50,309 nucleotides of DNA, from sequence record MN296515; one strand, 5' to 3'. A program made the translations under genes and the position numbers. Positions 5,534 through 49,913 of this stretch are shown here, in pieces (positions within the stretch are counted from its first letter, which is position 1; each line of letters starts with the position of its first letter). Under the pieces are notes generated by a model, which saw only the letters and a list, made by a program, of their open reading frames with translations, was not told where the DNA came from and did no database searches. The stretch is from Shigella phage Sfin-3.

Positions 5534-6058
5534 ATGAGTGAACCTAAGAACGCTCCCGTAGTTCAGGGTGGTAATTTCAAAGAGCTATACAAGAAAAAGT
5601 TCGGCACTGTTCTTGCGAAGAATCGGGCCATGACGCCTGAGCAATTATTCGATCTATCAGTTAAGTATTTCGAATGGGCTGAGGACAATGCGATCAAGGC
5701 GTCTGAATCAGCCAGCTTTCAGGGTGGCGTGTACGAATCTCTTGTTCATAAGCCTCGGGTGTTCACCTGGACAGGGTATCGACTATTCATCGGTGCAAGT
5801 GAGGCAGCTATCATTAAGTGGAAGCGAGAAGAGGAATATAGCGAGGTTATGGAGTTCGTGGAATCTGTAATCAACGAGCAAAAATTCCAACTTGCCGCCA
5901 ACGGTGTTATTAACGCCTCCTTTATCGGCAAGGATCTCGGGATCGATAAGCCAGCCTCAATCAATATCGAAAACTCAGCAGCTTCAGCATCTACCTCTGT
6001 TGCCACCACTGAGGATGCAATGAAAGAGGCAGTGAACAGCATTCTTGACATGCTTTAA
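5534..6058 (+). CDS. putative terminase small subunit
   Basis: Position directly upstream of TerL; ATG 5534 with AGAGGG RBS (track ORF 5510 starts inside palindrome 5501-5515); assignment by synteny only. Confidence 0.45.
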   Translation: MSEPKNAPVVQGGNFKELYKKKFGTVLAKNRAMTPEQLFDLSVKYFEWAEDNAIKASESASFQGGVYESLVHKPRVFTWTGYRLFIGASEAAIIKWKREEEYSEVMEFVESVINEQKFQLAANGVINASFIGKDLGIDKPASINIENSAASASTSVATTEDAMKEAVNSILDML

Positions 6059-32568: not shown

Positions 32569-33021
32569 TTAACTAAAAATGCTATTGGTCGTTCCGATAT
32601 CTTCCTTCTTGACAACTCGCATAAACTTCTTGTTTTTGCAGCGCTTCTCAAGGCACTTGCCGTTCCCATCAAACTTCAGATCGAATCGCAGCCATGCGGC
32701 CCGAAATCCTTTGCAACCCTGTCGGCGATAAGCACGATGCGCCGCTTCAGCGCCTTGCCAGGAAATCATATTTCGATCCTTCCACCCTTGAACCGTCTGG
32801 TTGCTAACTTTCAGAGCCTTTGCGCAAGCCGCCGGACCACCATAATATTCAATAAGAGCATCCAATCGCGCTCTCAGTCCTGCGCGCGTTTCTTCTTTAT
32901 GGATATAAAATCCGCAGCGCTGGCGAGGCTTTTTATCTTTACCGCGTCGTGTTCCGTTGTTACCATTGATGTGACGTTTATCGATTTCACCAGTAGACTC
33001 TGCGATACGCTTCATATTCAT
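32569..33021 (-). CDS. Cro/YdaS-like HTH DNA-binding protein
   Basis: ATG 33021 with GGAGA RBS (track start 33093 would overlap the promoter); central ...ACAKALKVSNQTVQGW...RFDL resembles YdaS/Cro-type HTH; basic N-terminus. Confidence 0.5.
   Translation of the reverse strand: MNMKRIAESTGEIDKRHINGNNGTRRGKDKKPRQRCGFYIHKEETRAGLRARLDALIEYYGGPAACAKALKVSNQTVQGWKDRNMISWQGAEAAHRAYRRQGCKGFRAAWLRFDLKFDGNGKCLEKRCKNKKFMRVVKKEDIGTTNSIFS
32570..32584 (-). promoter_or_regulatory. degenerate palindrome copy (TAGCA-ttttt-AGTTA) at 3' end of Cro-like gene
   Basis: Encodes the C-terminal NSIFS* of the Cro-like protein; followed on minus strand by terminator 32522-32559. Confidence 0.3.
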
Positions 33022-36852: not shown

Positions 36853-37102
36853 ACGCGAGGTTTGGGAGCACGCGAAGGAGTGCGGGATCTCAGGTGATAT
36901 AGCACTAATAGCCAAATATTTCGATATAAAGGATGTTAGCATTATCTCAAATGGCAAGATTTCATTTATGGAAGATATGCCGAGAAAAATGCATAGAGTG
37001 CCAGCCACCCCATCACTTGAATTTTATCGTGAAGAAGGAAAGAGAATTGAGCGAGAACGAAAAACAGCAAAGAACAATAAGTCTTCCAGGATTAAACATT
37101 AA
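36830..37102 (+). CDS. hypothetical protein (90 aa)
   Basis: Track ORF; overlaps both neighbours; see finding on possible recoding/overlap. Confidence 0.4.
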   Translation: MLIKKQGKREVWEHAKECGISGDIALIAKYFDIKDVSIISNGKISFMEDMPRKMHRVPATPSLEFYREEGKRIERERKTAKNNKSSRIKH

Positions 37103-37334
37103 CGAAGACGATTACCAGACCATATGGATCGGAAAGAAGCAGGTTAAGAAAATACCTTTCTCTGATTGGTTGCCTCCTGACTTCGCAAACGTGCTGTGTA
37201 CCATAGGGATCGATCAGGAGTTGCATATAGGTTATTACTCACCTGGTAGAAACAGTATGATGCTTGAGGTTGACGGAAAGCTGGTTGAGTTTAAATCGTC
37301 AGATCTAGGATTCTGGTTAAAGGCTGTGGCATGA
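37047..37334 (+). CDS. hypothetical protein (putative, TTG start)
   Basis: Protein-like frame (…WIGKKQVKKIPFSDWLPPDF…) opens after GAAGGAAAGAGA RBS; start codon uncertain; overlaps previous ORF by 56 nt. Confidence 0.3.
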   Translation: MSENEKQQRTISLPGLNINEDDYQTIWIGKKQVKKIPFSDWLPPDFANVLCTIGIDQELHIGYYSPGRNSMMLEVDGKLVEFKSSDLGFWLKAVA

Positions 37335-38627: not shown

Positions 38628-38804
38628 ATGAAACGAGTTAAGTGCATCCGAAATGATTCCAAAACGCTTCCATTCCGCGTAAATCAGATCTATAGTGTTG
38701 GTTATGATTTCGGAGGTGGATTGTTTGAGATTTACGATGGTAGAGGTTCAACAATCCAAGCTCCTCTGAACGGTCATTACCTGGAATTTATTGAGCTAGA
38801 TTAA
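38628..38804 (+). CDS. hypothetical small protein (58 aa)
   Basis: ATG 38628 with AAAGAGG RBS after module 38556-38598; followed by terminator 38827-38856; below ORF-track cutoff. Confidence 0.45.
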   Translation: MKRVKCIRNDSKTLPFRVNQIYSVGYDFGGGLFEIYDGRGSTIQAPLNGHYLEFIELD

Positions 38805-45286: not shown

Positions 45287-45329
45287 ATTATGCCAAATCA
45301 CACCGATCGAGTTTTAACAAAAAGTGCTA
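45287..45329 (-). promoter_or_regulatory. composite promoter module, minus strand (TAGCA-ctttt-TGTTA, 22 nt, -10 CATAAT)
   Basis: Palindrome 45315-45329; -10 45287-45292; ATG 45252. Confidence 0.5.
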
Positions 45330-46018
45330 TCCGCGATAGCTTTAAAAAATCCCCTGGGCGACAGGGATCGTATCAACTTAGTTTTGGCAGATTTGCCGCC
45401 CAGCTTGTTTTGCTGTGCAGAGTACCCGTCAGGCAGGTTTACAGGTTTTCTCTCGGGCATGACAAAATCGCCAGAGGTCCAAAGACAAGTTTTCTTCGGA
45501 TAAGCATCGCGCGGCGCAATATACATCGGGAACCAGGGATGTGAGTCATTCTCAGGAAGATAGCCGCCATACTCCCAGGGATTGAAGGAGTGATTTGGTT
45601 TTCTCCACGCAGACGACAGGACGCTCACCGGATTCTCAATGATGTAAGTCACGCCCAGGCTATCTCCAATGTTCGCAGCAATCCGGGCGGTGGCGACAGC
45701 TTTCTCCTGGAACAACGGATCACGTTCACGCTTGCTGGCAAAGTGGCGAGCACCACTAACAGCCAGGTCAGTGCACGGCGGGAAGGCTATAATGAAATCC
45801 GGCTTGCCATACACGCCAGCTATAGCATCACGCTCAAACGCTGCGTCAATGAACACGTTCACATACTCAATGTTCGGATGCTCCACTCGGGCATTGTACT
45901 TTGCATAATCCCCGTGATCGGCTCCGTCAAAGTTGAAGCACATCACCTTGTGACCTTGCTTAGCCAGTTCATGACCTGCAAGGCCGGAACCGTCGAATAG
46001 CGACCAAATCAACTTCAT
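45314..46018 (-). CDS. small DNA (cytosine-5)-methyltransferase-like protein
   Basis: 234 aa; motif I SLFDGSG, motif IV FPPC (catalytic Cys), motif VI ENP in canonical order; shorter than typical C5-MTases. Confidence 0.55.
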   Translation of the reverse strand: MKLIWSLFDGSGLAGHELAKQGHKVMCFNFDGADHGDYAKYNARVEHPNIEYVNVFIDAAFERDAIAGVYGKPDFIIAFPPCTDLAVSGARHFASKRERDPLFQEKAVATARIAANIGDSLGVTYIIENPVSVLSSAWRKPNHSFNPWEYGGYLPENDSHPWFPMYIAPRDAYPKKTCLWTSGDFVMPERKPVNLPDGYSAQQNKLGGKSAKTKLIRSLSPRGFFKAIADSTFC

Positions 46019-46158
46019 TTTGCGATCTCCTTTTTGTAGTGATTCAGCTTGTCGATGATTGACTTCGACTTGTTGGCTAGCGCCATGTCAGAGAACAGAG
46101 CCACGCGATAGATGTGTTCGTAACGATTAATGGCCGCGTTGATGTTTGCAATATTCAT
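46015..46158 (-). CDS. hypothetical small protein (47 aa)
   Basis: ATG 46158 with CAACCAATCAGAGGA RBS; track GTG start 46197 would overlap the -10; stop overlaps next ATG. Confidence 0.45.
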   Translation of the reverse strand: MNIANINAAINRYEHIYRVALFSDMALANKSKSIIDKLNHYKKEIAK

Positions 46159-46188
46159 GTCGATTCCTCTGATTGGTTGATGTGATGA

Positions 46189-46233
46189 ATCATACACTGC
46201 CAGCCTGACCAGGTCGTTAGCAAAAAATGCTAT
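46189..46233 (-). promoter_or_regulatory. composite promoter module, minus strand (perfect TAGCA-ttttt-TGCTA, 24 nt, -10 TATGAT)
   Basis: Palindrome 46219-46233; -10 46189-46194; ATG 46158. Confidence 0.5.
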
Positions 46234-46433
46234 TCCAATAGTTGCTCATTATTCCACCAGTAATGGAATATCTGGAATAATTGCGATCCCGATTGATCTC
46301 GAATGATGAAATGTGATTGTTGCATGATGTGCAACTGTTGATGTGATTGTTGCTTGGAATGCAATGATTGTGAGAGGGAGGATTTAGTGTTACCCGGTTC
46401 GCCTGGTAGTCATCTCCATTTTTAGCAAAACGT

Positions 46434-46448
46434 GCTATCGATTACACT
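46434..46448 (-). promoter_or_regulatory. palindrome copy (TAGCA-cgttt-TGCTA) without evident -10
   Basis: Minus-strand orientation in intergenic region B; no TATAAT-like hexamer at 22-24 nt. Confidence 0.35.
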
Positions 46449-46754
46449 TTAACTTGTCACGACTGTAATATTTGTCTAGAATCGCACTTGTGACAAAATT
46501 ACGCACTGTGACGCATAACAATAGACATGTAGATATATGTATATATATAATATATATAGTGTTTTTTTATTTATATATATAGATAATCATATTGTAATGG
46601 TTGTGTATAGCCGTCTTACATTGTCTAGCGTACTGTTGGCATATTTCTATCTGCATGTTTATATATACAGTACTTTTTTGAGAGCCATATATTTCTATAT
46701 GGACCCTAGACAGCTAGACAAATGTTACACAGCTTAAAATTGGCTCGCAGGCAT

Positions 46755-46783
46755 TGACAGCCCTACATTGCGCCGTCACAATG
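46755..46783 (+). promoter_or_regulatory. weak sigma70-like promoter candidate (TTGACA-17-CACAAT)
   Basis: -35 46755-46760 perfect, -10 46778-46783 poor; in AT-rich region B upstream of gene 46842. Confidence 0.3.
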
Positions 46784-46841: not shown

Positions 46842-47357
46842 ATGAGCAATACCAATCAGGAATTAAAAATCACCGATATGATTCGACTAACCTGCGATGC
46901 AATGTACCGCGACAAAGGCATGACCGAGTTCTCTTTCGTGGCTGATGATATGGCCATCGAGGCCGCGCGATTCTACTTCCGTGGCCAGGAGGTAAGCGAT
47001 GCCGATCTTGAATCTGCCGCTGCCGGATGGGTGGACCAGAACCAGGGGGAGGTAGAGAAGAGATTCAAGTCCGCTTTCATTACTCCGATCATTACCCGGC
47101 ACTTTTGCAAGTACGGCAAGGTGGCAAAGGTGAAGGTAGGCCGGAATGACGCGGCAATCACAATGATAACCGTTATCGTTACAGACGAAGAGGTTCCAGT
47201 GAAGAAACGCCGTAGCCGGAAAAAAGTTAGCCTGGCCGACTGCCTGGATTCGTTTGATGTTGATGTTAGCAAGCTATCCGATAGCGAGTTAATGGTTCGT
47301 GATGTGAATGAGATCGTGCGCCAGATGAAAGCGCATATTGAAAAGTGTGGACTGTAA
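46842..47357 (+). CDS. hypothetical protein (171 aa)
   Basis: Track ORF; first gene after AT-rich region B; AAGGATGAA RBS. Confidence 0.6.
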   Translation: MSNTNQELKITDMIRLTCDAMYRDKGMTEFSFVADDMAIEAARFYFRGQEVSDADLESAAAGWVDQNQGEVEKRFKSAFITPIITRHFCKYGKVAKVKVGRNDAAITMITVIVTDEEVPVKKRRSRKKVSLADCLDSFDVDVSKLSDSELMVRDVNEIVRQMKAHIEKCGL

Positions 47358-47372
47358 CGCTGATAGGTGAAA

Positions 47373-47415
47373 TAGCACTTTTTGTTAAAGCTCGGTCGAG
47401 CGGATCGGGTATTAT
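47373..47415 (+). promoter_or_regulatory. composite promoter module (TAGCA-ctttt-TGTTA, 22 nt, -10 TATTAT)
   Basis: Palindrome 47373-47387; -10 47410-47415; ATG 47448. Confidence 0.55.
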
Positions 47416-47447
47416 CTTTTCATCGACACGATACAGAGGAAACGAAG

Positions 47448-47642
47448 ATGGAAACGCAAATTGACGTAGTGGTTGTTCAGCGGGACTCAACTCATGAAAA
47501 GGGTCTTTTCAAGAAAGGAACCGAAATCACGATCGACCTTGAGGATATGGTTGCGTATCACTCGGGCCTTACCTGGAACGTGGTGCGCGTAGGGAGCGAC
47601 TACAAACTCAAAGGCTTTAACACTTACTTTGCGGAGGCTTAA
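47448..47642 (+). CDS. hypothetical protein (64 aa)
   Basis: ATG 47448 with CAGAGGAAACGAAG RBS after module 47373-47415. Confidence 0.5.
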   Translation: METQIDVVVVQRDSTHEKGLFKKGTEITIDLEDMVAYHSGLTWNVVRVGSDYKLKGFNTYFAEA

Positions 47643-48430: not shown

Positions 48431-48658
48431 ATGCCACGTTACAGTAACCTAACCAAACTAGTCCGCGTCAACGGGCATATGATCCCGGCTAAATCTACTC
48501 ACTGCGCGAAAGGCGCAAAGCACGGATTATATTTCAAGTGGCGCGGTCAATGGAACTTCACGGCGGTGAGCAATTTTTACATGCGAGTTCCAGGTGATGA
48601 CCCGCAATCGGTAGTAGAAAACTCAATAGGTGACAACAAGATCGAGGTGCTAAAATGA
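48431..48658 (+). CDS. hypothetical protein (75 aa)
   Basis: Track ORF. Confidence 0.5.
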   Translation: MPRYSNLTKLVRVNGHMIPAKSTHCAKGAKHGLYFKWRGQWNFTAVSNFYMRVPGDDPQSVVENSIGDNKIEVLK

Positions 48659-49424: not shown

Positions 49425-49913
49425 ATGAAAATTAAATTACTTTGCACTGGCGGTTACAAGGGCTTTACTCGCGACCTGGAATCTGACCCTATTATCGTTG
49501 ACGCCGTGAAGTGCGATGATAGCACGGGCGGCTACCGCGTAAAGGTCGATGACCTGGTTAAAGCTGGCGTGTACGATCTCGATTACGGCCTATCGGTTAG
49601 TCCAGTATTTGGCCCGGCTGACTTCAACGAGAATGACGGAACGATGTTCTTTTTTGAATGGGAAGTTCAGGCAAACATCAAGCCGCGAAAGGTTCGGCTT
49701 CTAAACAATGGCGGGTATCCTATGCGCCCTGGTTATGAGAATCGCACGTTCCCGGTTATTGTTGACTTTGAGGAAATTACCAGCACCCTGGCTTACGTTG
49801 GCAATGAACAACTCAATGCTGTAGGTTTTTGGGGTGGGATGAATAAAGAGTCACTTTGCTTCTTCCATCGCGACTCCGAACCGTTCTCTATTGAGTGCGA
49901 GCTAGTCTACTAA
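49425..49913 (+). CDS. hypothetical protein (162 aa)
   Basis: ATG 49425 with TGAGGATTGAAATC RBS (49410 alternative). Confidence 0.55.
   Translation: MKIKLLCTGGYKGFTRDLESDPIIVDAVKCDDSTGGYRVKVDDLVKAGVYDLDYGLSVSPVFGPADFNENDGTMFFFEWEVQANIKPRKVRLLNNGGYPMRPGYENRTFPVIVDFEEITSTLAYVGNEQLNAVGFWGGMNKESLCFFHRDSEPFSIECELVY

Follow-up and report, generated by a model that had tools for sequence, protein, structure and literature searches.

A conserved repeat cluster at the left end of T1-type phage genomes: a candidate pac-proximal control region

The window analysed here is the whole 50,309-nucleotide sequence of Shigella phage Sfin-3 (MN296515), a T1-like coliphage of the genus Tunavirus (Drexlerviridae). 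The repeat cluster described below sits in a gene-free gap of about 680 bp that separates two divergent gene blocks. For the start of the minus-strand block there are two candidates, 46197 and the likelier ATG at 46158, which is preceded by GAGGA; the plus-strand block begins at 46842. All relatives inspected have the same layout, with a gap of about 600-780 bp between blocks of small genes pointing apart. Over 1.1 kb around the cluster, 63 phage records match at 80-99% identity. Nearly all of these are Escherichia or Shigella T1-like phages, and CLB_P3 and LeonhardEuler are the nearest relatives over this stretch. The gene for the small terminase subunit is about 9 kb downstream of the cluster. 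The features of the locus, and that gene, are:

46189-46194, minus strand: -10-like hexamer TATGAT of the leftward promoter of the minus-strand block
46217-46233, minus strand: T1-type 21-nt repeat element, TAGCA-N5-TGCTA, overlapping the first TATTCCA
46231-46279, no strand assigned: four heptamer half-sites, TATTCCA at 46231-46237 and 46250-46256, TGGAATA at 46264-46270 and 46273-46279
46291-46370, plus strand: four GATTG/TGATTG repeats, at 46291, 46315, 46345 and 46366
46311-46334 and 46341-46364, plus strand: 24-nt direct repeat ATGTGATTGTTGC-N6-TGCAA, two copies with 83% identity, 30 bp apart
46320-46334, no strand assigned: palindrome 1, TTGCATGATGTGCAA; T1 base 1 aligns one base to its left
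46350-46364, no strand assigned: palindrome 2 (imperfect), TTGCTTGGAATGCAA
46373-46385, plus strand: purine-rich block (A)GAGGGAGGATTT, resembling a ribosome-binding site; local GC skew 0.56
46390-46407, no strand assigned: hairpin-forming inverted repeat TACCCGG-TTCG-CCTGGTA, perfect in T1
46422-46438, minus strand (leftward): second, "orphan" repeat element, without a -10-like hexamer
5534-6055: small terminase subunit, Pfam match GP3_package (P22 gp3-type)

The cluster is real, non-coding and conserved. In eight Tunavirus genomes, variable columns make up 9 of the 68 in motif cores and 28 of the 72 in spacers (Fisher p = 0.001). The initial annotation of this DNA, made from the sequence alone, had proposed that the repeats are protein-binding sites. 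They do look like such sites: they are clustered, they are palindromic or on the same strand, and their cores are conserved more than the spacers. It had also seen no convincing open reading frame here, and the relatives bear this out. A 44-aa minus-strand ORF is interrupted by stop codons in most of them, including 8 of 8 other Tunavirinae, and is open in K62PH164C2 alone. A second frame is open in most Tunavirus phages, is broken in pSf-2 and Lg3, and has no start codon.

Other kinds of element were sought at the same place. Rfam gave only sub-threshold matches (U7 and GlmY, E about 3), and folding of the strand compared with shuffled sequence gave no significant fold (z = -1.66). A scan of the cluster for consensus promoters and terminators found none. 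Sigma-70 promoters with -35 and -10 hexamers spaced 16-18 nt apart are absent from 46237-46440, the nearest being at 46454-46482, 46522-46551 and 46754-46782; promoters built by hand (TTGCAT...GATTGT and TTGATG...TGCAATGAT) were dropped for poor hexamers or spacing. By eye, none of the DnaA box, IHF, ARG box and CRP look-alikes in the cluster fits, and GTTGCATG may resemble the CytR octamer. A scan of IMG/VR with the 14-mer GATGTGATTGTTGC returned 120 loci, none of them related by BLAST, and was uninformative because a 14-mer is too short for that collection. Candidate binding proteins were sought by presence and absence across T1, Kp1513, TLS and SU57. This pointed to a DUF7274 protein (48431-48658) for TATTCCA, and to a DUF7244 protein (38628-38804) and a 133-aa protein (36933-37334) for the palindromes; none of the three has a recognisable DNA-binding domain.

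The cluster is bracketed by two copies of the repeat element, 205 bp apart, both leftward and both matching the consensus. The initial annotation had placed the promoter module correctly at 46189-46233; its orphan palindrome, put at 46434-46448, is in fact at 46423-46437. The element at 46217-46233 is near-invariant across three genera. There are ten copies of TAGCA-N5-TGCTA in the window (at 308, 1855, 2375, 3670, 31494, 33035, 35545, 44850, 46218 and 46423) and 13 further copies with one mismatch. One copy (35545) precedes dam, and another (33035) separates pir from the helicase gene. In six of the copies that we read, a -10-like hexamer (TATAGT, TATGAT or TAGAAT) follows TTGCTA by 22-23 nt. 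This spacing puts the centre of the repeat palindrome near -42, the position of an activator that overlaps the -35 region. The leftward promoter beside the cluster has the geometry of the other copies: TATGAT, in a column conserved in a 15-phage alignment, is 23 nt downstream of TTGCTA in the 46218 element.

The paper on Rtp reportedly proposed the Pir homologue Rtp52 as the protein that binds these inverted repeats. The Pir homologue in the window (32572-33021) has a weak match to P22_Cro, and an Orf65 homologue is encoded at 1886-2371. Pir of T1 is an activator at the hol and dam promoters and a repressor at its own, and Orf65 represses pir (PMC6737242). The 21-nt direct repeat itself is known from TLS, T1, Rtp and Rogue1; its consensus is aaATAGCACnnnTTGnTAAAA, which the 46217-46233 element matches, and its function is listed as an open question (PMC11447400). 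At 46181-46196, across the -10 of the leftward promoter, lies TGTGA-N6-ATACA, a partial match to the CRP consensus; in T1, several promoters are reported to be repressed by cAMP-CRP (PMC6737242).

The left half of the cluster is built from one inverted motif. Four ATTCCA/TGGAAT hexamers had been described in nested inverted order at 46243-46284. The four are present and nested in order, but they span 46231-46279 and are not concentric. ATTCCA is at 46232 and 46251, TGGAAT at 46264 and 46273, and there is a fifth TGGAAT at 46355. The real unit is the heptamer TATTCCA/TGGAATA, with two rightward copies followed by two leftward ones. The outer pair is centred on 46255 and the inner pair on 46260, and the array contains a 21-bp palindrome, TATTCCA-N7-TGGAATA. 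In 300 simulations (first-order Markov, whole window), none reached five ATTCCA/TGGAAT in 130 bp and none reached four heptamers in 50 bp. The array is unique in the genome. A lone inverted pair, TATTCCA-N14-TGGAATA, occurs at 2892-2919 inside the polynucleotide-kinase gene; it is absent from the homologous position in T1 and is probably due to chance.

In the 15-phage alignment, the block TAGCA-N5-TGCTATTCC...ATTATTCCA...TGGAATA..TGGAATA is nearly invariant in Tunavirus, Badaguanvirus and Webervirus, with single-base changes in the heptamers of a few sequences, and the DNA around it is no longer alignable between these genera. In TLS (Tempevirinae) the promoter element is retained, with two copies of TAGACCGATTGGTCTA standing where the heptamers would be. 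SU57 and Rtp (Braunvirinae) have neither the TATTCCA array nor the TLS-type palindromes. Since the first TATTCCA overlaps the promoter repeat element, the array lies about 50-97 bp upstream of the leftward promoter. Because the left half is fused to that promoter and is replaced by other palindromes in TLS, we read it as a lineage-specific, operator-like array for a predicted dimeric protein that would control the leftward promoter or access to pac, and not as a shared terminase signal. The TLS sequence is of interest in its own right. At 49779-49811 (L140 880-912) there are two overlapping copies of the perfect 16-bp palindrome, exactly at the position of the TATTCCA array in T1-like and Webervirus phages, and this exchange of one motif for another at a single position suggests that a lineage-specific DNA-binding protein may have been swapped.

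The right half holds other repeats. Four GATTG copies had been listed and four are present, those at 46315, 46345 and 46366 exactly where they had been placed and the first at 46291 rather than 46293; a fifth GATTG is at 46171. The helical-phase spacing that had been supposed holds in part. The intervals are 24, 30 and 21 bp, of which two are near whole helical turns and the other is not. Four GATTG in 80 bp were reached in 7 of 300 simulations, and three TGATTG in 60 bp in 4 of 300. When the 200 bp to the right of the promoter element are compared in nine Drexlerviridae, no other 5-mer is enriched as widely as TGATT (41 observed, about 9 expected), which is strongly biased to the plus strand in most of the nine, which belong to several genera. 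The GATC sites at 46285 and 46295 are not conserved and read GATT in most relatives.

Palindrome 1 is correctly placed in the initial annotation at 46320-46334, and palindrome 2 had been overlooked. Both are of the type TTGCW-N5-WGCAA, they are 30 bp apart, and each is enclosed in one copy of the 24-nt direct repeat. None of the 300 simulations reached two TTGCW-N5-WGCAA within 50 bp. In T1 the motif is found only at this locus, in two copies; the window has one extra copy, inside the helicase gene. Such confinement to the locus is more in keeping with a cis site present once than with an operator of a regulon. As had been pointed out, palindrome 1 shares the 5-N5-5 spacing of the regulon element and has a different half-site (TTGCW versus TAGCA). 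The likeness to the T1-like 21-nt repeat, and thus to the inverted repeat assigned to Rtp52 (Pir), consists of the core GCA-N5-TGC. The cluster palindromes differ from that repeat in having no -10 hexamer 22-23 nt downstream and no genome-wide spread, and both fail a search for the fuller consensus ATAGCAC-N3-TTGCTAAAA with a -10 at 22-23 nt. Given the shared geometry and core, it is plausible that a helix-turn-helix dimer related or identical to the one that binds the regulon element reads the cluster palindromes.

The right half is also shared more widely. Units of the form ATTGTTGC...TGCAATGAT are homologous in IME347, SU57, Rtp and ESCO41, and these units together with the TTGCW-N5-WGCAA palindromes are common to those four phages and Tunavirus. 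The form TTGCT-N5-TGCAA, that of palindrome 2, is also present in SU57, Rtp and IME347. BLAST matches to the right half reach Rogue1-like phages, at the level of BLAST and not of motifs. TLS and Kp1513 are without the TTGCW palindromes. The two halves differ in their distribution, the left being specific to certain lineages and the right more widely shared; the initial annotation had noticed neither this division nor the fusion of the first ATTCCA to a leftward promoter element.

To the right of the repeats, GTGAG- or GGAGG-rich blocks occupy the relative position of the purine-rich block in TLS, SU57, Rtp, IME347, K62PH164C2 and BHUENT9. As a separate observation, the stretch 46375-46425 contains a strong look-alike of a ribosome-binding site, GAGGGAGGA, followed by a GTG at 46387 and a 12-codon frame (MLPGSPGSHLHF) that ends at the TAG of the second repeat element and overlaps the TTCG-loop hairpin. 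The peptide is identical in T1, and other genera have a comparable purine block and a start codon at the position of this frame. It could be a leader peptide, a remnant or a coincidence.

The right half is also where genome ends have been placed. The initial annotation treated the cluster merely as a regulatory array of early genes; it overlooked that this is where T1-type genomes have their physical left end. In the T1 reference, base 1 corresponds to 46319, the nucleotide just left of palindrome 1, and the annotated 2800-bp terminal repeat_region begins with it. The first base of Rtp is the A of AGCAATATTGCT, which falls within the palindrome TTGCACGTAT|AGCAA. Columns counted by hand in a MAFFT alignment separate this start from that of T1 by about 6 nt. 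For both ESCO41 and XT34, the record opens with the first T of TTGCAGCTATTGCAA. Measured rightwards from the leftward repeat element, base 1 of TLS lies at 117 bp, among successive TGATT(G/T) repeats, and the end of SU57 at 165 bp. The starts of Shfl1 and S2_02 align to about 46373-46374 and that of SH2 to 46387, and the termini of IME167 and Henu5_2 align to 46407. Extrapolated match coordinates put the end of IME347 near 46402 and the start of GH-K3 near 46367. Altogether, the deposited ends of T1, Rtp, ESCO41/XT34, TLS, SU57, SH2, Shfl1, IME167 and Henu5_2 are inside the cluster or within about 90 bp of it.

This evidence is strong in number and partly of uncertain quality. The ends are spread over about 90 bp, and two of them flank the hairpin, which could instead cause assembly breaks. 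Several later records copy the T1 start, KanT1 by its own statement, and base 1 of T1 and of Rtp may have been either measured or chosen. The ends of TLS and SU57 are independent of the T1 convention. The TLS pac site was restriction-mapped from a submolar pac fragment and then refined by analogy to P22, with AGATTT assigned (PMC11447400). The end of SU57 was picked from a PhageTerm candidate and an abrupt step in read coverage, and the authors state that the pac site "was not identified" (PMC7718038).

We propose that the cluster is a cis-acting region at the physical left end of the T1-type genome, where headful packaging starts (pac), and we think this has about an even chance of being right. 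The same middling confidence applies to what we consider the best joint reading, in which the right half is the packaging-initiation region and the left half is the lineage-specific operator-like array. We assign pac to the right half because it is single-copy, conserved across subfamilies, built from repeats and coincident with assigned ends. Uniqueness, as expected for a pac site, is seen in both halves, in that the TATTCCA array occurs once and the TTGCW palindromes of T1 are confined to the locus. In the late phase of infection, the small subunit of terminase would assemble on the right half, contacting the same-strand TGATTG repeats and the two TTGCW-N5-WGCAA palindromes. The large terminase subunit would then make the first cut in or just to the right of the array, within about 46319-46407. 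DNA would be packaged rightwards into the early-gene block, and with this cut a terminally redundant, partly permuted series would begin at a sharply defined first end. We infer both the pairing of protein with repeats and the identity of the deposited ends with genuine terminase cuts.

Classical work on T1 agrees with this location. MacHattie and Gill, in 1977, and Ramsay and Ritchie, in 1983, are said to have found that T1 packages by the headful mechanism from a unique pac site at its left end, and a T1 pac fragment reportedly directs packaging or transduction of a plasmid (Liebeschuetz and Ritchie, in 1986). At P1 pac, SPP1 pac and lambda cosB, the cut is as a rule flanked by arrays of short repeats. 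The comparison with T1 pac is the closest: genus and locus are shared, T1 base 1 and the start of its terminal repeat fall inside the cluster, and the T1 junction sequence keeps every motif. P1 pac has seven TGATCA/G hexamers in two groups that flank the cleavage region. The likeness to it is that short repeats are grouped on both sides of a cut, away from a strict terminase-gene context. In contrast to our cluster, whose GATC sites are not conserved, the P1 elements are Dam-methylation sites that time cleavage, and P1 has other repeat sequences and a terminase of another family than the window phage. SPP1 pac is organized as pacL-pacC-pacR, and lambda cosB as R3-R2-R1 with an IHF site. These resemble the cluster in having several small-terminase boxes beside, but separate from, the cleavage site, in intergenic DNA that contains promoters. 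They have no sequence similarity to it, however, and they adjoin the terminase genes, whereas the cluster is about 9 kb away. P22 and Sf6 share with the window phage the small-terminase family, GP3_package, and headful packaging. P22 pac differs in being a single asymmetric 22-bp site inside the small-terminase gene, and the cluster has only a weak TATCTG resemblance to it, which is not conserved in Webervirus.

Some observations do not favor a packaging signal. Ring-shaped small terminases are expected to read same-strand repeats and not palindromes. Co-variation of the motifs with the small terminase was not seen in whole-protein identity to T1, a coarse measure that could hide conserved contact residues: the identity is about 50% in Webervirus, which keeps TATTCCA, about 54% in TLS-like phages, which lack it, and about 50% in Rtp-like phages, which keep the TTGCW palindromes. 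T1 packages lambda from a pac-like site, located imprecisely between P and Q. We found no TTGCW-N5-WGCAA and no TGATT cluster in lambda, and the best short matches are at chance level; the comparison, made with this imprecision in where the lambda site lies, is uninformative. Wietzorrek et al. had earlier proposed five ATATA repeats as the T1 pac signal, as reported at second hand in a later paper; these would lie some 200 bp farther right than the cluster, within the AT-rich core.

The main rival to pac is that the motifs are operators of the early promoters that diverge here. A dimeric regulator of phage or host origin would bind the TATTCCA array, which covers about -50 to -97 relative to the predicted leftward start near 46182, and the TTGCW palindromes would be variant sites for Pir/Rtp52, a Cro-like protein that probably binds TAGCA-N5-TGCTA. 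Packaging ends would then fall here merely because this is the largest gene-free gap. We regard this as possible but rather unlikely for the cluster as a whole; it is compatible with pac and may well be right for the left half alone. There, the first TATTCCA is fused to a repeat element, the array is just upstream of a promoter with a conserved -10, and TLS has at the matching position two perfect 16-bp palindromes of a kind typical of operators. The two leftward elements on either side, the GCA-N5-TGC core and spacing that the palindromes share with them, and the existence in T1 of two regulators, Pir and Orf65 (PMC6737242), the first with a weakly P22_Cro-like homologue in the window, also fit. 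However, the other promoters of the genome show no TATTCCA clusters and no TTGCW palindromes, and the cluster contains no consensus promoter. TLS and Kp1513 keep Pir (52-58% identity) and the repeat elements, yet are without the TTGCW palindromes. Operators would also leave unexplained why ends assigned by several laboratories fall at the palindromes. Those ends likewise count against an origin of replication, in which the TGATTG and 24-nt repeats would be iterons for an initiator (perhaps the phage primase or helicase) beside an AT-rich unwinding region at 46520-46700. For an origin one can cite same-strand repeats at irregular spacing of about 20-30 bp, the AT-rich core (21-33% GC), which lies some 150 bp farther right between the arms of a 16-nt inverted repeat, and a site where transcription diverges and the GC skew changes sign; moreover, the TLS and SU57 papers both report finding no origin. 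But the change in skew coincides with the change in gene orientation, which explains it fully, so that skew does not discriminate. Typical iterons are 17-22 bp in three or more copies, whereas here the repeat core is just 5-6 bp and the longer unit has two copies; the AT-rich core has separate flanking repeats of its own; and among the window genes no initiator is adjacent or assignable. We consider an origin quite improbable.

At the other extreme, the cluster could be neutral, low-complexity intergenic DNA, with local duplications that have no function and are kept by close kinship. The region is AT- and GT-rich, and the density of four GATTG is only modestly unusual in the simulations. Against this are the heptamer array and the palindrome pair, never matched in 300 simulations, the conservation of motif cores over spacers, the persistence of the TATTCCA array between genera whose surrounding intergenic DNA cannot be aligned, and that of the palindrome units between subfamilies. 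We find neutrality very hard to credit. The cluster looks functional and is best described as a pac-proximal control region of a T1-type phage.

A bolder form of the packaging proposal can be put forward, although we think it unlikely. Terminase might cut at or beside TTGCW-N5-WGCAA palindromes amid TGATTG repeats, as a composite signal of much of the Drexlerviridae. This signal would be bracketed by the two promoter/regulator elements and guarded in some genera by the four TATTCCA heptamers, and the start of packaging would be gated by Pir/Rtp52 or by leftward transcription through pac. Its scope is the Tunavirinae, Braunvirinae and Nouzillyvirus, which we read, and the Rogunavirinae by BLAST only; TLS and Webervirus are diverged and TGATT-rich. 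If such gating exists, it would be a timing switch that couples packaging to transcription, with a logic comparable to Dam control of P1 pac.

T1, a classic phage, is known both as a generalized transducer and as a notorious contaminant of laboratories, and the sequence at which its packaging starts lacks a motif-level definition in the accessible literature. The locus is known from classical mapping. We found no motif-level description of the determinants of T1 pac in that literature, and the composite architecture is therefore, as far as we can tell, an addition and not a repeat. The conserved architecture offers a rational base 1 for the many Drexlerviridae genomes deposited with arbitrary starts, and a site to aim at when transduction and packaging vectors based on T1 are built or disabled. 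It also provides a defined DNA substrate for a small terminase of the P22 gp3 type whose site is 9 kb from its gene. Even if the operators or the origin were the true explanation, the cluster would still mark the main control point of two early gene blocks.

Several observations concern the surroundings of the cluster. The AT-rich core at 46520-46700 has many TATATA runs, and the 16-nt inverted repeat around it (46464-46479/46714-46729) is 94% complementary. The core looks like a DNA-unwinding element and, to the extent that the later paper describes them, corresponds to the "ATATA repeats" once proposed for T1. In the rightward early block, the product of the second gene (47382-47639) is 86 aa long and strongly matches Gp54 in Pfam, "phage antiviral trigger protein" (E = 1e-35). 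On the other side, a Dcm-like cytosine methyltransferase gene (45314-46018, minus strand) adjoins the intergenic region. It is without a counterpart in T1; homologous genes are found in TLS (63% identity) and Klebsiella phage 1513 (42%), a distribution that points to a possible exchange of modules at the right genome arm.
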